Source: Torpedo marmorata (taxonomy: Eukaryota). From it: 64,000 nt of DNA. The translations under genes and the position numbers were made by a program. Below the pieces are notes generated by a model. That model was given only the letters and a program-made list of their open reading frames with translations. It made no database searches and was not told the DNA's origin. Below are positions 1 through 37,200 of the stretch, piece by piece. Where the stretch lies: NCBI GenBank assembly GCA_977017645.1, contig OZ360227.1, positions 98,394,001 through 98,458,000 on the forward strand, given 5' to 3'. Every line of letters starts with the position of its first letter. Position 1 is the first letter of the stretch.

Positions 1-2433
1 AGGCATTTGAACAAGCAACACAGTTTGCAAATGCTCTTGAGTGTGCAGAAATTCCATTGAAGGAAAAAGAGTTTTCAACACCAATAAAACAATTTCAAGT
101 GGACATAAAAGAATCTCAAAATCAATACAAGTTGAAGAAAAATATTGACATACTTTCTGATCAGAAGGCTGAAAGTTTGATAAGTTCATGGAACTCACTT
201 GCAAGGAAAACTGAATGCAGTCATTCAATGACTGACCACTCTAGCACAACAGAGAAATATGTACCTAGTTTTGCTGAAAAAGAAGTAATAACAAGAGAGT
301 ACACACAAAAGGTTATTCCTTCTCCATTACCCAAGAAAAGCATCTCAGTCCCTGTCTGTACACCTTTGAATGCTAATTTGCCTGGAAGCATCTTCATAAA
401 ACAGATGTCTGGATTTGAATATGGAACTGTTGACCACACCAAATCAGAATACAGAGAAAATGAAGCAATAAATGTCATTAAAATAAATGAAAAAGTGGTG
501 CAATATGAAGAGACAATTAAAGATGATACGCAGACACAGTTGCCTTCTACTTTATCAGATAAAAAAGAAACTTCATGTGTTATCAGTTCTTTGATTAAAG
601 ACACACCAGAAGATGTAAAATGCATTCCGTATAAAACTGTGGAGGTAAACTCTGAAACATTTGTGGATGCATCACCTGAAAGATATATTGGAAAACAAAA
701 TGATTTATTAACTCAGAAAGCAGTTGCTCATGAAATATCTGATCAGTCTCCATCAGAGATGATTGAAATGAGCAAAATCAATCAGAAAGAAACCCTGTAT
801 GAAGAAGAGATTACAGATTCTATTCCTGTACTGAGGAATTCTCCTTTGACAGCAAAGAGAAGAAAAGTATCAGCTTTTTTCAGACCAGTGATAAAACAAC
901 TTTCATTGGAAATAAAACAGTCTCCAAAGGAATCTGAAGTTTCTGAAGAAGATAAGCCAGCATCTGAAAGAGGTTATGGAAATTTTATGGAAAAAGACTG
1001 TGCAACAGCAAGATCTGAAGATAACCATGAAATCCAAATGATTGAACAATCCAAGTTAGCAGAAAAACAAATAGATGTTTTCAGTGTGCCTGAAGTCAGT
1101 CAAAATGAACAGTGTAAAGGCACAGTTAAAAATATCACTTTAATTTTGGGACCTTCTGCATCAGAAAACAAAGAAAGCTTCCCAGCTGTCAGTTCACTCC
1201 TGAAAGAAAGAGCAGCTGAAATGAAAGAACCTCCATATAAAGGTGATAAGGTACCACCTGATCAATTTGCTGGTGGGTTTGTTTGTATAATGAGAGAACT
1301 TGCAACAGAAAAATCTGAAGACTTCCTTGAAACAACCAATGTTTGCACACCAGTAGAGGTGATTTCTAATACTTACCAGAAAGAAACACAATATGAAGAC
1401 CAGATTAAAAGCACAATCCAAACAATAAAACAATCTTCACTTGATAGAAAAGATGCACCAACCACTTTAAGTACATCTGGACCTATGGAAGACGATGAGG
1501 CAACCCATGTGCAGCAATGTGGAATTTTGGTTCAAGCACAAAAGAGCTTTTTGCCAGGGAAACTTGATGAAAATCATAAAATGTACTTTCAATCCATTAA
1601 AGCAGGAAAAGAAACTGAGAAGATTTATGAAGATGAAATCAGACAAAAAGAAAGTGAATCTGAAGTAAAAGTTTTGAATTCCACATGGATGGCAAAGATT
1701 TCCCCTTTATCAGATGAAAAAGAAACTTCAATTTACACAAGTTCATTGGAAAAACAATTGTCAGTGGACACAAGTGATACTCTTTGCAACTTTAAATTTA
1801 AGGAAGATCCTTTGAAAGGTTTTGAAAGTTTTACCAGTACTCACAAAGAAGCTCCAACCGAGAACCTGGAGGATGACAAAATAATATCTGTTCATTCAGC
1901 ATTCAGTGAGAGAGCAGTGATTAACATATCTGAAATTGATCAGAAGGAGGGTGAATGGGAAGTTAAATGTCCTTCTCAAACTGTGAGACATATACAAACA
2001 AGGAGGCCTTCTTCCTTGAAAGAAAAAGAACAGGCTTTAGATTTATTCAGTTCATTAATGAAAGAAGCACCAGCAGAAGAGCATCATTATAAATGTAAAA
2101 CTCTGAAAGAATCTTCAAAACCAGAGACTCCTTCCAATAAATTCAACAACCATTGTCCACCAGAATTTCTTCACCACATTTCAAATCCTAAAATTAAGCA
2201 AGGAGCTACCTGTGTGCTTGAATATCAATTTTACGGGTACCCACTGCCCACTGTAACTTGGTACAAGGATGAGCATCCAATTCCACAAAATAGGGGTTAT
2301 GATATTTACTCCACAGAAAGAAAAACCTTATTGAGTATTAGCAACACATGCAAAGAACATGAAGGAGTTTATGCATGTGTAATATTCAACGAATATGGTT
2401 CTGCAAAAACATCTTGCGTCCTTAAAATGCAAG
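1..2433 (+). CDS. ttn: Titin novex-3 upstream exon (5' end outside window): long Glu/Lys/Ser-rich unique region plus one Ig domain
   Basis: Frame of ORF 57..2510 is open from the window start; Ig PPEFLHHIS...VTWYKD...EGVYACVIFNEYG resembles a human novex-3 Ig; donor CAAG|gtaaaa at 2434. Confidence 0.88.
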
Positions 2434-2535
2434 GTAAAATTCAGTATACTTTAGTTTTTAATTATTTTCTTAAATTATATTGCAATAACATAGTTGAAAA
2501 TCATTATTGATTACGTTTTTTTTTTCATTTTCCAG

Positions 2536-5500
2536 ACCCCGAACTGTTTGAAGAATCTTTGAAAACATTTAATATATGTGTGACAGAAACACTCGAGAAC
2601 TATACTGAAAAGGATGATCAGGACTATCAGGTTGAAAAGGAAGTTGAATCTTATTTTTCTCCAGTTCCAGTAATAAAATCCACCCTGCAAATACCAAAAT
2701 TTGCAGTACCCCAACCACATCCAATCAATTTATCTGCTCTTTCATCTCCCGTTGAAATTAAAATAACTGCTCCAACTCCAATACCAATGCAAGATGAAGA
2801 AGGGAGAGAGTTATTTCATACAGATGAGGTTGATTTCACAGATTTATCTCTAGAACCTTCCTCTCAATCTACAAAACATAAATTTAAATTTTCTTTTGAT
2901 GAGATTTGTGAACCTCCACAAGTTTTAAAAGAGTTAGATAAGATTTATTGTACATTAGGAGAAACAGTAATGTTTGAATGTCTAATTTCTGGTGAGCCAA
3001 AACCTGTTGTTACATGGATTCAAAATGACAGAGTTTTAACTTGTGATATGAGCAAGTACCAATTTGAAGAGAGTGGAGGAACGTATCGATTGTATATTAT
3101 TGGGGTTTCAGAATCTGATATAGGAAACTATAAATGCATTGCTAAAAATAAAGATGGGGAAGCACAGAGTATATCTAACCTCATAATAGAACCTGTAGTG
3201 CACAGTTTCATTTACCATTTGAAAGATATTGAGTCATCTGGTGAAGAAACAGAAACATCTATGAGCTCTTTTTTACATAATCTAAATAAAATGGGCCATG
3301 GTGAAAATATTGAGCAGCAATGTCAGAAAGAAAACAGGAATACTTCTCTTTCATTTGGTGTGAAAGAAAATCCAATTCATGTTATTTCTGAGGTTGGTAC
3401 TTTTGTTGCTGCAGATAAATTTTCAAGTGACATTTCATCTTTAAAAGAAGAGAGCAGTGATATTGCATTAGACTCATTGAGTTCTTTTGATAATGAATTT
3501 TTAAGTAACAATTCATTTTTAAAAGAGAAAAATAATAAAATAGTCACAGAATCAGGGACATTTGCTGAATTTCCAAATAAACATCCATCTTTAAAGGTTG
3601 TTAATAATACAATGATCAAAGACACAGATGAGACAGGGCAAAATTTGCCAGAAATAATAGAAGAAACATATTCTATCAGCCGATGTTTACGCTGTCTTGA
3701 GAAAAATCAGAAGTTTCCTGAAGTTCAGAAGATGGATGAAGCAACAGAATTAAAAGATAACAAGTCTGTATTTTCAGGAGAAATATATGAAGATGGTTTG
3801 TTTTCAGAAAGCAGAATTACACAAATTGTTGAAAGTGATAAAGGTGAAACAGAAAAAAATATGTCAGAAGAGGAGTTAAGTAACTCAGTATTTCAAAAAA
3901 ACAATTGTAATATTAGTGTGAATTCAGTGGAAGTAATTTCCAAGGATGAGGCAAGTGGAAATGTTTCTGTTGCACAATATCTCCATACTGCAAGCCAGGA
4001 GGAAGCACGAGTTCAAGTTCAGGAAAATAATGAAGTATTTCAACATGATGAATCTGGAATAACTTCAATGGAAGTTGAAGAAGTAACATTTTCTGCTGTT
4101 TATGACTACTATAATCAGAATGAAGAGTGGACACGGTCCCTTTCCCCTGAATCTGAAATGTCAATTGAAATTAGTAGTACAGTAAGTGATGAAGTAGCAG
4201 AAAATGAAAGATTTTATATACCACCCTTGGCTTCTGAAAATTTTAGATCTGCTGCATCTGCAGAGTCATTTCATACCCCACCTCAATCACCTGGCTATGT
4301 GACTCCTGAAGAAAGATTGCCTTCACTTAATGCTGTAAGTAGATCTCCTCCTGGTACTTTACTAGAGAGATTTTACACACCACTTGAGTATTTTAGATCA
4401 CCAGTAGATGAGGGAATTGAAACAACATCTATTGAATGCTCAAGTCTAACTACTGAAGAGCCAAGATCAGAGGTATTTTCTACTCCTCCACAGGAAGCTG
4501 AAGCAAAAGGAAATGAAATGCCTCCTGCATTTATTAGATCCCTTGCTAGAAAAACGATTCTTGAGGGAGGCTCACTAACGTTTTTTGCAGAAGTAATTGG
4601 TTATCCAATTCCAGATGTTAAGTGGTATAGAAGAAAATCATTATTAGAGCCAAATCACAAAATTAGACTCGAAAGGGAAGGAAATTTGTGTATGTTAGTA
4701 GTTCATAACTTGCAAAAAGAAGATGCAGGAGAGTATATTTGCAATGCTGTCAACATTTTTGGAGAAGCTAAGAGTATTGCTCAGGTGAATGTTTTGGCAC
4801 AAGACACTAGGTTAGTTGCATTGCCACCACCTGTGACTCATCAGCATGTAATAGAGTTTGATGTGCAGCAAGAACAAACATCAAGATCTCCTTCACCTCA
4901 AGAAATTATTTTGGAAGTTGAACTTGATGAACATGAAGTGAAGGAATTTGAAAAACAGATAAAAATTATTACAATTCCTGAATTCACTCCTGACAATAAA
5001 AATATGATCATCTCACTAGATGTTCTTCCTATGATAATTGCTGATGAACAGAATATGGACTTAACAGCAAGAGAAAATGAAGATGTTAAAATTGAGTTAA
5101 AAGTCACTGAAATGCCCCCACGGTTTATTAGCCACATTTTCAATCTTGAGATTCCAGAAAACAAGGATGCAGTGTTTGAATGCTCTGTGACAGGAATTCC
5201 TACTCCAGAAATAATGTGGTTCAAAGATGATTTATGTATAACAGTGGATGGCAGGAAATATATTAGAAAAGATGATTGTAATCATAGTCTTAAAATAACC
5301 AATGTCTGTCCTTCTGACAATGGCATATATAGTTGCAAAATAGTAAATAGTGTTGGAGAAACAACTTGTAAGGCTTATCTTGCAGTAACAAACTCAAACA
5401 TGGCACTAACAAAAGCAAGTGGAGGAGCTGAAGCTACTTTATCACTAGGTGGTGCTCAAGAATGTTCCCAGGAATTAGATGTTGTTGGTGATTCTTTGCT

Positions 5501-6020
5501 AGGTGATAATCAGTGTTTAGAATTTGAGGTTGAGCTTGAATTTGAGCAAGGTAGAGATGATTCTCAGAAATCAGTGAAACTTGTTGCTGTAACAGAGAAA
5601 GGAAATAAGGAAAAAGATGAGAAATGTGTGAATATCAATTTTGATGTATTTGCTGAATCTGCCAAAGATGAGACTATTCAGTTTAGAGCAGAGGCTTCTG
5701 AAACATGTTCATTTGACTTTCAAGTGACAGAAATTTCACCCAGGTTTGTAATTTATCTTCTTGACTGCAATGCAATCATAGGGAATACAGCATCTTTTCA
5801 ATGTGTTGTCACTGGTACTCCAAAACCTGGTGTAATTTGGTATTGGAATGATAGAATACTTGAAGGTGCCAACTATATCACTGGGGAAAAAGAATCTGGG
5901 GAACATTATTTAAACATTGTAAATGTTACGGAAAGTGATGCTGGAGTCTACAAGTGCAAAGCTTTCAATAAAGCTGGGAATGCTGTCACAGCTGCTGTTT
6001 TGAAAGTATTTTGTGCATAA
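2536..6020 (+). CDS. ttn: Titin novex-3 terminal exon (4 Ig domains plus unique sequence, ends in stop)
   Basis: Acceptor ttttccag|AC in frame with the upstream exon; novex-3 motifs PVEIKITAPTP, RSPSPQEIILEVELDE..VKEFEKQIKI, PEFTPD; TAA at 6018-6020 with no donor after the last Ig. Confidence 0.92.
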
Positions 6021-8340: not shown

Positions 8341-9355
8341 GTTAAAACAAATAACGGAAACTCACTCTCTACCGGAAACATTTTCGAATGCAATAATAAC
8401 AGTTATATCAAAAAAAGACAGAGACTTGTTGAAAACAGAATCATATAGACCAATTTCATTGTTAAATGTGGATTATAAGATAATGGCGAAAATATTGGCA
8501 AATAGACTTGCTAAATATTTACCAGATTTAATTCATGAGGATCAAGCAGGTTTTATTAAGAATAGATATTCAAAAGATAATATAGCTAGGTTAATTAGTT
8601 TAATTAATGTGGCTCAAAAGAAAGAGGAATTGGCATTAGTATTAGCATTAGATGCTGAAAAGGCTTTTGACAGATTAGAGTGGAATTATTTATTTAAAGT
8701 ATTGGAAAAATTTGGTTTTGGCACTATATTTATTAATTGGATTAAAACTATATACGAAGAGCCTTCTGCCAGAGTGGTTACAAATGGACAAATTTCTTCA
8801 AAATTTTTGTTGACTTTGGTCGACACGACAAGGATGTCCTTTGTCACCTGCATTATTTATTTTAGCAATTGAACCTTTGGCAGAATTAATTAGACAAGAT
8901 ATCAAGATTACGGGTATTAAAGTTGGAAGGAAAGAGCATAAAATTAGTTTATTTGCAGATGATGTACTGATATATATGACAAAACCTACTACTTCTTTAA
9001 TACAATTGGATGTTTTATTGAAAGAATATGGGGAGATATCTGGTTATAAAATTAATTCTGATAAAAGTGAAATTATGGCATTAACACAAGGGGATTATAG
9101 TAAATGTAAAGAAATTACACAATTTAAATGGTCAAACGAAGGAATTAAATATTTAGGTATAAAGATAGACACTAAATTAGTTAACTTATATAAATTAAAT
9201 TATTTACCATTATTTGTGAAAATTAAAAAAGATTTAGAAAGTTGGAAAGATTTACCTATAACTTTAATAGGAAGGGTAAATTGTATTAAAATGAATGTCT
9301 TTCCAAGAATTCAATATCTTTTTCAATCAATTCCTTTTGAAATTCCTCAGAAATA
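8340..9355 (+). mobile_element. L1/Tx1-clade LINE ORF2 reverse transcriptase fragment, frameshifted
   Basis: SYRPISLLNVDYKI, LDAEKAFDRLEW, SLFADD, IKYLGI; frameshift near 8815. Confidence 0.93.
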
Positions 9356-9607
9356 TGACATTCTTCTGATGCTATTTTAATTAGTTTTATTTTTATTTTA
9401 TTAGTGCTATTTATTTGAACTGGTCTAATACATAAAATATTTTACAGAGGAATACCTTAAAACATGTTAAATGCTCATCTCCAATACCATTAACAGCTAC
9501 AAAATAATTTAATCTTAGAAATTTGTCATCTGATAACTTTGAGCAATGTGAAAGCATCCTCTCCAAATACTATACTGTGTGATGCAGTAAATTTTAAAAA
9601 ATTAAAA

Positions 9608-13504: not shown

Positions 13505-14292
13505 AACTGTTGGCTGTTTTCTTTTCCTGTCACTTAGAAATCTGAAATGAATTTAAACATTTCATTGCTGCCCAGTTATGAGAAGTTAACATCATAAATC
13601 AGAGATTTATAGCTGCATTTGGTTGTTTTGATGAAACTGAAATTATAGTATTGATCTTTCTATAACCAAGGTAAATATAGCAATACATTGTCTCTTGATG
13701 TGACTTAATCAAATTTGGTTGATTGAAAAATATGTATATCAGTGATGGAATAAAGCTTAAATTAGAAATGACTCTTAAGTCTTTTGAAAATTTGTAGCAT
13801 GCAGCACATTTCTGTGTAAGAATAATGCTTTCTGCCATGATTGCTCTGGAGTGTGATTCTAGATTTGCAAGATGCCCATCGCTACTAACAAACACCTTTG
13901 TTCCTACAGTTCCTTTTTTATTCACTTTGAGTAATTCATGGAAATATAGACATTTATTCACAAATAATTACTCAGAAGGCACACATTTGAATCTATGAAT
14001 TTAAATCAAACTTAATTTGAAATGTTTTTTAAACTACTTGGGTGTTATTAAAATTGGCTTTAGACAAAATAAAATGAAATTGTCTGATCTAATTCTGTGC
14101 ACAATCACAAACCTACAACATACCTTGATTGAAGATAAATATTTAAAGAAGACAGAGAAAATTAACCTTTTGAAGCAAAACGAGCACAAAATGACATATT
14201 AATAATTCTGGTGATTTATTTTTGTTTCCAGTATTTAGAAACACTCACAATCAATATATTTTCTAAATTTAGCCATCTTATTTCTTATACGG

Positions 14293-17200
14293 AAATTTCT
14301 AGCTCTGTAATCATCACTGCTGAAGATGAGAGGGAAGATTTCTACACAAGTCAACTTCATGTGCCTGACAAAACATTTGAACTCAGGGTGGAAACTCCAG
14401 CTCCTTCGAACATTTTGGACCTTAAAACTGATGCTAAGCCTTTAAAATCTGTGCCAGTATTCATCAAACATATTTCTAGTATGGAGGTAGTTGAGGAAGA
14501 TGTAGCTAAATTCTCTGTCACTATTAGTGGATTCCCAGAACCCTCTATTCAGTGGTTTTACAATGGTAAAAAAATGACTCTTTCATCAAATTACAAGCTT
14601 ATTTATGATCAGGATGAATATAGTCCAATTATAACTTACACAAAATTTACAGATGAAGGAGAATATACGCATACAGCTACTAATGTACTTGGAGAGACTT
14701 CATGTAGTGCATATCTGAAAATCAAATCAAAGGAAGGTCTGGGAGGGTTTAGGAAATCAGCTGCAAAGCCTCCAGTAGCAAAACTGCCAGAAAAAAAAAA
14801 GATAAATAAATAGCCACTGTCAAAGAGTGCTGTGATGGTACAACAGGCAGAAACTATGCATGTATCTAGGGGTGAGGCACCACAGTTTTAGAAATAATTT
14901 AAATCTTTGCAATGTCTAAAAGGGATGCTTGCTAAATTTGAGTTTGTGGTGCCAGGAGAACCAATGCCAGAGATACTTTGATATAAGGGAAAATACCAGA
15001 TTTGTCAGTGTGTACACTGCCACTTGAATTACAGTTCCAGTGGCTCTGGTTCCTTAACCATTCTTGATGCACAGAAAGAGGATAGTGGTGTGTATTTCTG
15101 CAAAGCATTTAATGCCTTTGGAGAAACAACTTGCACTGCAGAGCTAATTGTGATTAGTGATCCTTTTGCTGTTGAGCATTCAAAACAAGAAAGAGTCCAG
15201 AAGCAACATAGTAAAATGTGCAAAACGTCTGTTGGTAATCATACTGTTGAGTCACGTTTATTCACAGTAAAATTATCTGGTGATACTCATGCAGAATTAC
15301 AGAGTAGAGATCAATTGTTCTATGCAATAGCTTCCGAAGATAAACATGCTGCCCACTGTGAAGAAGCATGAGGTAACAATCTCTGCTGCAATTTCAGGAA
15401 AGAAACTGAAGACAATGCAATCTCAAACTACACCAGAGAGTCTTGGCTTCATTGAGCAACACTATGAACCAATTAAAAGCCCAACAGTATTCAGATTACC
15501 ATGCATGGAAGCACAGCCAGACCAAAGCCTTTGTTTACCCACAATTGAGTAAAAAACTGCAAATCCAAAGGAACCCATCTTTGGTATCAAAGATTTGCCT
15601 TCTGCAACTCAACCAGTGACAGGGAAAGCAGGTATGCCAGAGAAAAATGTCTAATTCTAGCTCAAAAGCTGCATATGTTAATGTTGTAGAAATGTCAAAT
15701 GCAGAGCCAAGGTACCCTATGGATGGCTACAAACTTGAAGGACTTCAAGAGCTCCTAAAGAAGCTTTGTTCTTGTTTGAAGTTCCTGAATTGCAGAAATG
15801 TGAAATGCAAAAAGAAAACAAATTAGAGCTTTATGCAACTGTATCAACAGAGAAGAAGAAAATAAGGGATGAAATTACAAAAAGCATACAGCCACTAGAT
15901 GCTGGATCAAAGTTATTAAAATGGGAATCAAAGTTATTAAAAGAATGACCAAAACCATTTTTGGCATATGTTACTGAAAGCCAGAAGTCGACCTCCAAAG
16001 AGTCTACCTTTAAAGTACAAAAAGCTGAATCACAACAAGCTTTATTAATGAAAGATAAACTTGAGAAAACTGTTTTAAATGCAGAAGAGAAACAACCACT
16101 TAGAAGTGAATATACCAAAATATTAATCGGGCTAGATTGTGCAATCTCATTGACATTGAAAAAAGACGAAAAGGGACCTTTACATTTACAGATTTTCAAG
16201 GAACAAGATCCTCTACCCAAAGAAAGAACATACGGTATACTTTTGAAGTACCCAGAGAAGAGCAAGCAAATCTGAGAAAGAGCCCAACACCGAATTTCAT
16301 GACTTGTTCATGACAATAAATTCTGATTCTGAACATCTCTACATTCAGTACTATCAGAAGACCAGCACCCGGTACCTTATGAATGCACAACTCATTTATC
16401 TGATGTAAAGGACAGCATTAAAATTAAAACAACAAAGGAACGTTTATCTAATTTATATTCTCATAATGTAGAAACTATGTGCATTTTTTATAAAGAAGGT
16501 ATACTACCCAATGAAAAACTATCTCCTCATATTGCAACAAGCAAACTTGAGAAGGCATACAGCAATGCTGTGGTTGTAGAAGAAAAAACAGAACTGTCAA
16601 CCAAACAAATGAAACCACTTGAAATGAAAATTTGCATTCTGAAATCAAAATTGATGCTCCACCAATAAAGTATCTGCCACCTGTAACTTTACCAATACAA
16701 AAATCTAAAGAAAATGTGTTTACAATTGAAGAAAAAGAACAGCATGCTCTAATAACTAAGTCTGGTGACAACACAGTTGTGGAAGATGGTTCTGTTGCCA
16801 TTTTCAAAGCTATAAGTGCAGCAACCTGTGAAAATAAATGAGAGCCAGAATTACTTTCAGCTTCTGTGCAGGTTAAAGAAAAAACTTGTGTCTATAGAAA
16901 ATGCTGATATGCTAGAGGGTGCAGAAGATTTTGCAGTAAGGATGCAAGAGGGACAGCCGGTAAGATTTCCACTGTTGCTTCAAGAAAAACAGATTATTGA
17001 AGAGGAACATTCTTCAGATTTGAAGAGATCAATTCTGAAGTTGGAGAACCAACCAATTCAAACACTACAATCCCATGTAGCACAAGAAAATGGTGCACTC
17101 TATAAAGAAATTGCATTTAAGATTGAAATTCCCAAAGCAATCACTTTAAATCCAGGTACACAGTTTAAGGAAGCATTTAAATCTGCTTTAGCAAGTGAGC

Positions 17201-17927
17201 ATCATGCGATTTCTTCCATTTCATTAGGCTGCATAGAAGCGATAAAAATTAAGGAATTAAAAGTTCAAAAGGAACCAAAGTATACTTTATATACACACCA
17301 AATTACCAATGCTAATCCTCCTATAGATATAACTCTGACCTTTGAAGGAGAATACCCTCCGATAGCTGACTTACAAAAGGAACTGATGACAGTGTTTCAT
17401 TCTGTTATTCATGAACTGCAGCAAACTTTCATAGCTGAGCAGCTAGGTACAATTACAAAGCCATCTGGCAGGAAAGAATAATTGTATATCAGTGTTACTC
17501 CTGCTGAAAAGATGACTGCCAACATTGATGAAAATACTTGGGATACAGAGGAGTATGGGAAGAAAACAGCAGAAGTAACAATGGAGAAAAAAATATTTAC
17601 TCAGGTTTCTAAAGTGATAATTGCAAGTGAAACACAAATGAAAGGAACTAAAAATAATCCAATAATTATTAAAGGGCTTACTGATACCACTGTAAATGAT
17701 ATTTAGCATAGTCATAACAAAATTGAAAAGTGTAAATTGGTATATAAATAAGAAGAAAATTATTTCAAAAAATGAGTTCAAATGTTTTCAAGATTTTGAC
17801 ACATACCAGTACTCACTTATAATCAACAAAGTATAGAAAGAGGATCATCAAGGAGAATATATCTGTGAGACACTGAATGAAGCAGGAAAAGCAACTACAT
17901 CTGCAAAACTCACAGTTGTAAAAAGAG
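14293..17927 (+). pseudogene. ttn: Disrupted titin N2B exon (I24, I25, N2B unique sequence, I26 homologues): pseudo-exon
   Basis: EISSS.., PVFIKHIS..IQWFYNG..CSAYLKI, FAVRMQEGQPVRFPLLLQEKQ, EDHQGEYICETLNEAGKATTSAKLTVVKR match N2B; acceptor reads cgg|AA; in-frame stops at 14811, 14889, 14895, 14979, 15946, 17479, 17834; several frameshifts. Confidence 0.9.
16288..16333 (+). mobile_element. About 46-nt retroelement 3' tail inserted in the N2B exon
   Basis: ccgaatttcatgac...atgacaataaattctgattctga matches the intronic tail at 21808-21847; aaca on both sides. Confidence 0.75.
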
Positions 17928-18832
17928 GTTGGATTATGGGGATAAAATCTTTATTAATATGAACTTTAGAATCTAATCTATTCAACTAATAAAATAGTTA
18001 ACTTATAATTTTAGTTTATGCTAATAAATTCACATGACTGAATCTTTCCTCTTTGTTCCTCCTTTTCCCTTCCTTCTTTCCCATCATATCTTAATGGTAA
18101 AGGAGTAATTGTGTTACCCATTACATTTCAATATATAATGCAGTCAAAGCCTGATGAGTTTATTTCACAAAATATGCATTACAAATTTTAAATATTGATG
18201 GCATTGCCTTGAAAAAATGTGAATTTGATTCATATTGATGTGATCTTCATATGCTTTCACTACCAGTAATAAAAAGCAACTTAAAGTTAACTCTGTTTAC
18301 AAAACTTACCGTGAATGTATTATTTAGTCTTGCTCCCTTTTATTTTGATATTAACTAATGATTAACATCACCCATCTTTTTAATTTTTTACTAACACAAT
18401 ATTGTTTTCATCCCCATATCCACTTTTGAGGAGATGCTAGATATTTATTACCACCATCACCATGTCATAACGAGAAGACAATGGAATATTGTTTTTCCCT
18501 CCTAATATCAAATTTTGTCATCTACTTTGTTCCAGGGGAAAACATCTCATTTTGTATCAATTACTTGCATGCTGCTATGCACTTCACACATGTCAATAAA
18601 TGTTGAATTTCATTAATTGAAATTTTATCATTTACAACATTGAGCACAGCCACTGGTCAGCTAACATCATTTAACCATCATTTCTTCTCCACAGGCATTC
18701 CATGGATTGTTAGTTTCTGCCACTTCTTTTCCTTCATTTTTTGAGTTTCAGGGGGCCACATCTAAACTAAGCTGAAAGAATTAGGGTGTATTGTTACAAT
18801 CTTCTTACTTTTTCTTTAATTTTAATCTACAG

Positions 18833-19111
18833 TGCCTCCAACTTTTAAAAGAAAGATTGAATCACAGGAGGTGATCGTTGGACAGGCTACACAGTTTGAA
18901 TATGAGGTTGAACCTCTTCCTGATGTGAGATTCCAGTGGTTCCGAGCCAGAGCTGAACTTCGTGATAGTGAAAAATACAACATTGTGAACAAGAAATATA
19001 TTTCTATCTTGAAACTTTTGAAGCCCCAGCTAATTGACTGTGGAGAATATACTTGCAGAGCATCAAACCAAATTGGCAGTATAAGTAGCACAGCTAAGTT
19101 GATTGTTCTTG
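18833..19111 (+). CDS. ttn: Titin I27-like Ig exon (279 nt)
   Basis: PPTFKRKIE..VRFQWF..DCGEYTCRASN; ctacag|TG and G|gtaagt. Confidence 0.93.
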
Positions 19112-21969: not shown

Positions 21970-23355
21970 AGTAGCACTTACATCAACAGTGATGAAGTGT
22001 TTTGAAAGGCTGGTGTTGAAGCATATCAGCTCCTGATTGAGAGGCGACATGGATACGTTCCAGTTCATCTATCGCAGCAACAGGTCTACAGCAGATGCCA
22101 TCTCACTGGCTCTACACAAAGCCCTGGAACATATGGACAGTAAAGATGCATTCATCAGGATGCTCTTCAGCAATGACAGTTCGGCATTTAATGCCATCAT
22201 CCCCTCAAAACTGATCAGCAAATTCCAAGACCTGGGACTCAACACCCCAGTGTGTAATTGGATTATAGATTTCCTCACCTCCAGACCACAATCAGTGACG
22301 ATTGGTAAGAACATCTCCTCCACAATCTCCATCAGTACTGGAGCACCACAGGGCTGCGTTCTTAGCCCCCTGCTCTGCTCACTTTACACCTACGACTGTG
22401 TGGCTCAGTATGACAATAAAACCATCTACAAATATGCCGACAATACCAAGGTAGTGGGTTGTATAAAGGAAGGTGATGAGTCAGCATACAGGAGGGAGAT
22501 TGAAAACTTGGCTGAATGGTGCACCAACAACAACCTTGCACTCAACGTCACCAAAGCTAAGGAGCTGATTGTTAACTTCAGGAAAGGAAAGCCAGAGGTA
22601 TACAATCCAGTGATCATTGGGGGATCAAAGGTGGAGTGGGTGAACAAATTTAAGTTCTTGGGAGTCGCTATCTCGGAGGATCTTTCCTGGAGCCAACACA
22701 CTAATGGCACTGTGAAGAAAGCACGTCAGCGCGTCTACTTCCTCAGGAGTTTGCAGAGGTTTGGTATGACACCAGAAACCTGGCAAATTTCTACAGATTT
22801 GTGGTGGAAAGTGTGCTGACCGGCTGCATCACAGTCTGGAATGGGGACACCAATACCCCTGAGCGTTAAGCCCTTCAAAAGGTAGTGGACACAGCCCAGA
22901 ACATCACAGGCAAAACCCTCCCCACTATCGAGAACATCTTCAGGGAATGCTGCCGTTGGAGAGCAGCAGCAATCATCAAGGATCCACACCACCCAGCACA
23001 TGCTCTTTTCTCGCTGCTGCCATCAGGAAAGAGGTATCGGTGCCACAAGACTCACACCACCAGGTTTAGGAACAGCTGCTACCCCTCCACTATCAGACTC
23101 CTCAACAACAAACTCAATCAGGGACTCATTTAAGGACTCTTGTGCACTTTATTGTTTTTTTTATTTTTTCTGTATTGCACAGTCAATTTGTTTACATTCA
23201 TTATCTGTTTACAGTACTTTATTTGTTTACATGTATGCGCTGTGTACAGTTTTTTTTGCACTACCAATAAGTGATAATTCTGCCTTGCCCGCAGGAAAAA
23301 GAATCTCAGGGTTGTATGTGATGTCATGTATGTACTCTGACAATACATCTGAAAT
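21970..23355 (+). mobile_element. 5'-truncated Rex1/Babar-clade LINE (RT and 3' UTR)
   Basis: [38 protein letters not shown] (for YADD), FKFLGV. Confidence 0.92.
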
Positions 23356-28350: not shown

Positions 28351-28492
28351 ACATAGGTAAGAGTCATAGTGTACTCTAACTTTTGTCATATCTTCAAAGA
28401 AGGGGAGAAAAAGAAAAGGGGTAGAAAACTTAGCTTGCTTGATATGTTTAATTATTTTGAATTACTTGTGCTATTTTTTTCATATATTTTAG

Positions 28493-34215: not shown

Positions 34216-37200
34216 GAATTAGATAAGATAGGAGAAAAAAATACCAGAAGATTTTATATATAAATGGGAATCTAAATTAATAACGGGTGAGAGAGAAACC
34301 CCTTTGTTGAAACATTTGATTAATATTTGGAATAAGATAAACATTGATGATGAAATTTCTTTATATATTTATTTAATTCTTGAAAAAAACTTTTGTGGTA
34401 ATAATATTGGTAATGTTTGAAACAAATATTATACTCTAGGAAATACATTCATTTTAACACAATTAACTCTACCCAACAAAGTTATTGGTAACGTCATCCA
34501 TTTATTGAGATCTTCTCCAATTTTCTTCAATAAAGGTAAATAGTTCAGTCTATATAAATAATTTAAATTATTATCTACACGTATACCTAAATATTTTATA
34601 CCATTCGTTGGCCATTTAAATTGAGTTTCTCTTTGACACTGAGTATAATCTCCTGTAGTGAGGGGCATAATTTCACTCTTATCCCAATTTATTTTATAAC
34701 CCGATACTTTCCCATAATCTTCCAGTCTTAAATATAATTTACCTAGTGAACTTATTGGTTCTGTCAAATAGATTAAAACATCTTCTCGATTAACTTTGAA
34801 TCCTTTAATCTCTGGATCTGACCGGACCAATTCAGCAAGTGGTTCTATTTCTAAAATAAATAAGGATGGTCATAGTGGACATCCTTGTCTACTCGATCTT
34901 GTTAATGGAAATGGTGCAGAGACCTGTCCATTTGTTACAACTTTAGCCTTGGGCTCATTATACAGAGCTTTGATCCAATTTACAAATATCTGTCCCATCC
35001 CGTATTTTTCCAACACCTTAAATAAAAAGTCCCATTCCAATCTATCAAACGCCTTTTCCACGTCCAAAGCCACTGTTACACTTAAGTCTCCCATTTTCTG
35101 TGCTAAATGTATTACATCTAGTTACATTACATTATCTGCGGATTGTCTCTTTTTTACAAATCCTGTTTGATCCATATTTATCAATTATGGTAAATATTTC
35201 ATCAATCAATTTGATAAAATTTTTGAAATTATCTTATAATCTGCATTTAATAACGAAATAGGCCTATATGATGACGCTTTTAAAGGGTCTCTGATCTTTT
35301 TTGGTATTACTGTTAATATTGCTGTAGAAAAGGAATCCAGGAGAGTGTATGTCTCCGCCGTTTGTTGCACTACCTCCATAAATGGAGGAATCAACAGATC
35401 TTTAATTTCTTTATAAAATTCAGGTGGAAAACCATCCTCTCCCAGAGATTTATTACTTTGTAATGAGCTCAATGCTTCACACACCTCTTTTGATGTAAAA
35501 GGGGCATCCAACCCTGTTTGTTCTTCCAGACTTAACCTTGGTAAACTTATTTGTGATAAAAAGTTTTCTATCTTATTATCATCTCTTTGCGACTTGGATT
35601 GGTATAACTTAGGATAAAATTGCTTAAAAGCTACATTAATTTCTTGAGGTTTATAAGTAATCACATTTGCGTCTGTTTTTATTGCATTCATTATTCTTGA
35701 AGTTTACTCTGCTTTCAATTGCCAAGCAAGAACTTTATGAGCTTTTTCGCCTAACTCATAATATCTCTGTTTAGTTTGCATTATTGTTTTTTCTGGTCTA
35801 TATGTTTGTAATGTTTTATATTGAAGTTTCTTACTAATAAGCCGCCTACATTTCTCAGAGATTCGTTTTTGTAAATCCTTCTCTAAGTGTGTTATCTCTT
35901 TCTCCAATTTTTCTAACTCCTTTATATATTCCTTCTTAATTTTTGAAGTATAACTTATAATTTGTCCTCTTAGGTAAGCTTTCATCGCATCCCATAGAAT
36001 AAATTTATTATTAACCGAATTAGAATTTGTCTCAAAGAAAAATTGAATTTGCCTTCTAATAAAATCACAGAAGTCTGGTCTTTTTAACAACTGAATTAAA
36101 TCTCCATCTATAAACTGATTCTTCTTTATCCAGCATTATAATTGTCATTAACAAGGGTGAATGATCTGATAATATTCTATCTTTATAATCCACCTGTTTA
36201 ATCCTATCTTGAAGATGTGCTGATATTAAAAATAAATCTATCCTCGAATAAGAATCATGCCTGTTTGAGTAAAATTAATAATCTCTTTCTCTTGGATACA
36301 TTCTTCTCCATGCATCTATTAAATTCAAATCTTTCATTAACATCAAGGTAGCATTCGCTGCTTTTGTCCTTGTTATAGCTCTAGTTGATCTATCTAAGGC
36401 TGGGTCCAAACAGAAATTAAAATCCCCACCTATTAATATATTATTATGTGCTTCTGCCAAATTAAGAAAAGTTTCTTGTATAAATTTTTCATCATCTATA
36501 TTCAGTGCATATATATTCATAAGGGTCCATAATTCAGGAAAAAAATGACAGTGTACTACCACGTATCTCCCTGCAGGATCAGTTACTATATTCTGTATCT
36601 TAATCGGAAGAGTTTTCTTTATTAAGATTGCCACCCTTCTTGCTTTTGAGTTAAATGAAGAGGCTGTAACATATCCTACACAATCTCTCTTTAATTTCTG
36701 ATGCTCTGTCTCAGTTAAATGGGTCTCTTGTAAAAAAGCTATATCTGCTTTCATTTTCTTAATATTTGTCAATATTCTTTTTCTCTTCACCGGTCCATTT
36801 AGCCCATTAACATTAAAACTTTAAAAAATGTACTGTATTACTCATTGATAAATTAGATTTATTTCATAATATTTCTCCCTCCCCTATCTCCTCGCATCTC
36901 CCCGAGAATCTTATATTTATAATCTACCGTGCTACAGTGCGTCCTCCTCAGCCATCCAGGTAAAAAGAAAAGAAAAAAATATATATAGAGTAATAAAAGA
37001 CCCCCCTATTAATGTTGCTTAAATAATACGCAATACTACCCCCCTCCATTTTACGGGTTGTGGCTTCTGCCACAATTACACACATGATTCCGTAGTAGTC
37101 AGTCCATATCCCCTCCAACCCACCAGATGTTTTTTTTAAAAAATATTTTATTTAAATTTTTAAATCACAAAATACATAAAATAATTTTGCATATATTTCA

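Follow-up and report, generated by a model that had tools for sequence, protein, structure and literature searches.

The 64,000-nucleotide stretch of Torpedo marmorata DNA analysed here (the window) is part of the titin gene of an electric ray (Table 1). The acetylcholinesterase encoded in this genome agrees at 468 of 477 residues with the top-ranked Protein Data Bank chain, an entry of Torpedo californica, which places the animal among the torpedinids. Its first 6020 nucleotides contain the 3′ part of a terminal exon region, which we take to be of Novex-3 type from its position, its terminal stop codon and the presumed exon order. A further basis for this name is found in the available text of PMC9575118. 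A same-frame stop at 2508–2510 is spanned by an apparent short intron (2507–2535), and the protein search gave no named close relatives of this region. A run of Ig exons extends from 18833 onward, downstream of the candidate N2B site, and is followed by N2A, PEVK and distal Ig exons, with N2A and PEVK open. We also observed decayed LINE reverse-transcriptase fragments, recognised from their translations, in the titin introns (8342–9380, 22037–22819 and 34429–36135).

Table 1. Features at and around the N2B exon, in window coordinates. The slash marks the exon end; X1 and X2 are contig sets of relatives, L009 and L010 are teleost loci.
Feature	Position	Strand	Basis
Novex-3-type terminal exon region, 3′ part	1..6020	+	open, stop at 6020
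Cryptic AG, out of frame, score 4.3	14230–14231	+	acceptor matrix
Cryptic AG, in frame, score 6.6	14237–14238	+	acceptor matrix
Second shared A>G (G14272), TAG at −23 to −21, out of frame	14270..14272	+	read-through codon; X1/X2
Polypyrimidine tract of the former acceptor, sequence still acceptor-like	14276..14289	+	matrix score 8.2 without AG columns
Broken N2B 3′ splice site, CGG for CAG, G at 14291	14290..14292	+	sequence; CAG in L009/L010; G in X1/X2
Decayed titin N2B exon, 3635 nt (two Ig, unique spring sequence, third Ig)	14293..17927	+	alignment, stops, frame changes
46-nt insertion, tail of a high-copy repeat with TTCTGA repeats at its end	16286..16332	+	X2 contig skips 46
Intact phase-1 N2B donor, G/GTTGGA	17928..17933	+	sequence
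I27-type Ig exon that follows N2B; phase-1 acceptor and donor both intact; the skipping junction would lead here	18833..19111	+	sequence

The frame 3′ of the broken site matched the N2B proteins of the skate Rhinoraja longicauda (XP_078260425.1) and the shark Mustelus asterias (XP_078085249.1), and also that of a skate-like sequence (P0001). Over 14293–17927, a frameshift-aware alignment gave 806 identical residues out of 1171 with P0001 (69%) and 757 out of 1219 with the Mustelus N2B (62%). In the tree, which was run twice with the same shape, the decayed exon grouped with two skate-type sequences with support of 100/100, and the shark was placed outside. The exon is flanked by the Novex-3 terminal exon on one side and the I27-type exon on the other, and its layout (Ig-Ig-long unique-Ig) is homologous to the N2B of shark, skate and teleost. 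In position, in domain order and in its phase 1-1 ends, it is like the N2B of jawed vertebrates (human exon 49; Rhinoraja, Mustelus, elephant shark), whereas it differs from them in having no AG acceptor, nine stops, eight frame changes and a repeat insertion, and the spring is not encodable. We must also note that the Rhinoraja model P0002 lacks 30 residues between the first and second Ig of N2B, which are present in P0001, in the shark sequence P0003 and in the window; this gap could reflect either a short additional intron or an annotation that bridges an indel.

A sequence-only reading of the window had claimed that the N2B acceptor was changed from CAG to CGG, that all intact exons carry AG at this place and that the donor at 17928 was intact, and each of these claims was confirmed, the second of them for the 34 exons checked. 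Positions 14281–14294 read tttcttatacggaa (tttcttatac-gg-aa), and the CGG, followed by AA ATT TCT AGC TCT, stands where a working N2B would have its canonical AG. With the AG columns of the matrix left out, the broken site scored 8.2, compared to a mean of 9.5 and a minimum of 4.5 for 34 real acceptors, and of the window's 2325 GG sites only this one and two others reach 8.2. These 34 acceptors belong to hand-picked Ig exons (a few others, e.g. near 28400, were left out), and AG was present in every one of them (24 CAG, 10 TAG). At the orthologous end of N2B, two teleost loci (L009 and L010) have the donor G/GTTTGA. The start of the following intron (17928–17960) reads RGWIMGIKSLL in the ray, the skate-type P0001 and the shark P0003, and RGWIMGI in teleost; it is probably a conserved splicing element for inclusion in the heart, still intact in the ray.

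Two metagenome scans were made for relatives; the first gave none and the second gave eight loci, with N2B present in L009 and L010 only. The N2B frame of L009 is open over 1279 codons and its acceptor reads ...ccaactcag/CCTTCTCTAGCTCA (CC TTC TCT AGC), and that of L010 is open over 1300 codons behind ...ttcctgacag/AGCGTTGTAGC (AG CGT TGT AGC). The CAG at the same place in both loci bears out the earlier identification of the ray site as the N2B acceptor, and the proposed co-occurrence of AG with an open N2B held directly for these two teleost loci and by inference for skate. All five intact read-through orthologues (P0001, P0003, P0005, P0007 and P0011) have T or S followed by E, A or V across the junction, as xCA G/ in phase 1 would yield. 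The skate model P0002 joins its upstream piece straight to EFSSS at the homologous site and appears to be spliced exactly there. N2B starts with EFSS in shark and skate, and with EFSSS in human. From the protein models we infer an AG acceptor in shark and skate, with the read-through of P0001 and P0003 fixing the position of the junction and not its base, since ACA and ACG both encode Thr. The primer SCnb1F from the elephant-shark supplement (PMC12241362) resembles 14298–14315. Judged by the teleost DNA and the protein read-through, 14290–14292 is the true orthologous position of the N2B acceptor. When intact orthologues using a different acceptor were looked for, the same junction was found in use. 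A conserved 'LISYT' had suggested a real acceptor further upstream; this was ruled out by the CAG/ at the junction in teleost DNA, and P0002 being spliced at the junction and the comparable read-through conservation 3′ of the donor also speak against it.

The decay of the exon amounts to nine in-frame stops and eight frame changes in 3489 phased nucleotides, and no open phase 1-1 frame is left in its 3635 nt. DNA of relatives at this stretch was available as three contig sets (X1, X2 and X3) from two studies, with X2 and X3 derived from the same sample. In its first contig, X1 showed 24 differences to the window over 1592 bases (1.5%). Inside the exon, 32 differences were among those listed for X1, of which 31 could be phased; 27 changed an amino acid and 4 were silent, with a neutral expectation of 21–28% for the silent share. 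X2 differed from the window over N2B at 169 of 3572 nt (4.7%), compared to 3 of 184 nt (1.6%, low depth) between X3 and the window in the exon that follows (Fisher P 0.046). Both the 27:4 ratio and the 4.7% versus 1.6% divergence agree with neutral evolution of the exon. The nine stops imply 0.05–0.07 substitutions per site since release (range 0.02–0.14), which is roughly double the half of the X2 distance that falls to the window, and therefore about five of the nine stops are expected to be common to X2. That N2B is a dead exon in this electric-ray lineage is strongly suggested by its sequence, and we are much more confident of this than of the order in which events took place. Within the exon we also observed a short tandem duplication at 15900–15945 (atcaaagttattaaaa twice), corresponding to approximately five codons more than in the orthologues.

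Position 14291 is spanned by X1 and X2 well inside their contigs, with no difference listed there in either, and X3 does not cover it; the splice lesion is common to all three decayed copies covering the site (the window, X1 and X2). The sequence-only reading had predicted a GG shared by species with a decayed exon, and the contigs of X1 and X2 both have G. Because X1 and X2 carry it, G14291 predates the lineage split and the lesions private to the window and to X2. The latter include deletions of 1, 13 and 4 bases in the first 270 bases of the exon in X2 (three frameshifts, 14293–14560), and the stops at 15550 and 17479, which are missing from X1 and X2 and belong to the window. G14291 is older than several such private lesions, with some five stops expected to be shared as it is, and G14272 shared too. 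The 46-nt insertion is not in X2; its bin (16286–16332) has very high depth and loose ends, and one X1 contig runs into it. Its tail is presumably that of a CR1-type LINE/SINE. This retroelement tail entered after the split from X2 and may serve as a dating marker.

Three further features lie just upstream of the broken site. The read-through codon at 14272 is AGC (S) in the window, N (AAY) in P0001 and K (AAR) in P0003. An A is needed in both skate-like and shark sequences, and G14272 is derived with respect to them; no difference was listed here in X1 or X2. The resulting TAG scored −12.6 as an acceptor, and it sits where the former acceptor would have had its AG-free zone. Position 14272 lies 21 bases upstream of the exon, and we take its original A to be the predicted branch point on the basis of the consensus, which makes the change a candidate branch-point loss. 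Both cryptic AGs scored below the weakest real acceptor (8.5), and the window frame is open from 14166 to 14813, covering the in-frame one.

Skipping of the exon keeps the gene in frame, as had been proposed from the sequence. The upstream 51-nt exon (L003:7330-7380) has a phase-1 donor, and its joining to 18833 gives GTG (Val). In all 34 checked exons (9771 nt) the frame is open and a phase-1 GT follows, the donor of each being the first fitting GT chosen by script.

In zebrafish, nonsense mutation of N2B acts as a recessive lethal (PMC9575118 and PMC7912658, available text), whereas the in-frame deletion of exon 49 in mouse gave viable and fertile animals with small, stiff hearts (PMC9575118, PMC7912658 and PMC8553726, available text). 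Skipping probably came first in the ray, because stops could not become fixed in an included exon; the order claimed earlier, skipping before stops, fits this published fish and mouse genetics. We consider it fairly probable that the A>G change in the acceptor was the founding event that released the exon. Without AG, the spliceosome would skip N2B in the heart, just as happens normally in skeletal muscle, and the heart would then make a full-length N2A-type titin, avoiding truncation. Once skipping was fixed, the exon would drift neutrally, acquiring shared lesions and later those private to each lineage. The founding-mutation claim of the sequence-only reading thus stands in the identity of the acceptor, the pairing of AG with open and GG with decayed exons, and the in-frame skip; that this base was the first change is no more than likely, given that about five of the nine stops should be as old and that G14272 is shared as well. 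Sharing sets no order among these lesions: those five or so stops should already have been present when X2 diverged, and a release close to this split lies within the decay interval of 0.02–0.14. We must also note that a morpholino against zebrafish N2B gave a lethal phenotype too (PMC9575118, available text), and because of this the loss of N2B in fish may not be harmless without another change.

In the main alternative, skipping arose by another route and the acceptor change was an early passenger. Candidates for this route are the A>G in the predicted branch motif (14272) and the loss of either a splicing enhancer or the heart-specific inclusion factor. G14272, being derived with respect to P0001 and P0003 and common to X1 and X2, could have weakened splicing before G14291, and with about half of the decay predating the X2 split, many lesions are equally old. 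Nevertheless, the role of 14272 as a branch point is only predicted, the K of the shark is a poorer match to the motif, and by neutral drift alone one would expect a couple of changes in the last 40 intron bases. Had skipping arisen otherwise, the AG would have had a chance of 5–9% of being struck passively before X2 diverged, and this low chance favours the acceptor as the cause. We therefore hold another route to be a possible, though doubtful, account. All explanations other than these two, in which skipping came first, are improbable even when taken together.

Among them, partial inclusion of the exon through a cryptic acceptor, with the transcripts lost to nonsense-mediated decay or yielding a short truncated titin, has in its favour the AG at 14237–14238 with its surrounding open frame and the intact donor, and this AG could have rescued some inclusion. 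We find partial inclusion very unlikely, since the score of this AG is below those of all 34 real acceptors, the frameshifts of X2 from 14332 on leave the open stretch unconserved, and truncation in N2B is lethal in zebrafish. A working N2B elsewhere, in a second titin copy or as a moved exon, would make the window copy a spare. Searches of the ray's own genome scored the best candidates only, and their counts are lower bounds: no further N2B copy was found among the DNA candidates scored (at least one match), nor by protein at E ≤ 1e-10 among the best 150 of 236 candidates (at least one match). Against a spare copy stand this single DNA match and single protein match, the flanking exons, N2A and PEVK, all intact, and the N2B unique sequence, of which no second occurrence beyond the known place was found in 324 kb of the locus; we rate it marginally lower still. 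An assembly error behind the G and the stops has only the general possibility of such errors in its favour and can practically be dismissed, because X1 and X2, at 1.5% and 4.7% divergence, keep G14291 in two independent contig sets from two studies. Moreover, X2 has frameshifts of its own, and the 34 neighbouring exons are clean.

The loss of a frame-preserving cassette exon in one lineage after a splice-site mutation is a known class of event. The ray case shares with it the loss of the splice site, the in-frame skip and the neutral decay inside a working gene, and differs in that the exon is 3.6 kb long and is the defining element of all main cardiac titin isoforms. According to the available text of PMC9575118 and PMC11033294, these isoforms all contain N2B, and the latter source describes N2B-containing cardiac titin in mammals, birds, turtle and fishes. 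In the elephant shark, the heart includes N2B (N2BA) and skeletal muscle skips it, and N2B was judged crucial for the hearts of cartilaginous fish (PMC12241362, available text). The mouse Ttn Δ49 line (Radke et al. 2007, via the available text of PMC9575118 and PMC8553726) is like the ray in that the whole N2B is lost in frame and the rest of titin is intact. However, the mouse deletion was engineered, whereas that of the ray is natural, fixed and old, and the rays retain N2A together with many of the middle Ig exons. In the mouse, the heart is small, with diastolic dysfunction and a reduced FHL2 level (same sources). The zebrafish mutant pickwick m171 has stops in the fish N2B exon, as has the ray, but its exon is still included, leading to truncated titin and death of the embryos, whereas the stops of the ray lie behind a dead acceptor (PMC9575118 and PMC7912658, available text).

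This electric ray and the two related rays (X1 and X2) are likely, from what their DNA indicates, a natural and long-standing knockout of a cardiac spring that is still present in sharks, skates and bony fish. Among the matches listed from the open-licence literature, none described a natural loss of N2B or the structure of titin in electric rays, with subscription papers and bioRxiv supplements lying outside this scope, and the available text of PMC9635730 and PMC12198301 added nothing on N2B loss. The fuller picture, in which torpedinid hearts run on an N2B-less, skeletal-type titin without the N2B kinase/FHL hub, a single acceptor A>G started this and an expanded PEVK may compensate, is in our view about evenly poised between right and wrong. 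If true, this natural knockout would test the need for the N2B spring and its PKA/PKG/ERK/FHL2 hub, and would show how a heart compensates, e.g. by longer middle-Ig or PEVK inclusion; an N2B-null heart would surprise titin specialists. It may also bear on the tolerance of exon 49 skipping around human truncating variants in that exon. The acceptor base itself is a precise marker to date and map the loss of N2B across electric rays. In terms of compensation, an amplification of PEVK could lengthen the spring and offset the loss of N2B. Downstream of the window, at approximately 116,000–221,000 in extended window coordinates (G000:C39, L030-L040), PEVK is amplified in tandem, with about 20 near-identical exon units at ~1.5 kb spacing followed by a second set of larger repeats.
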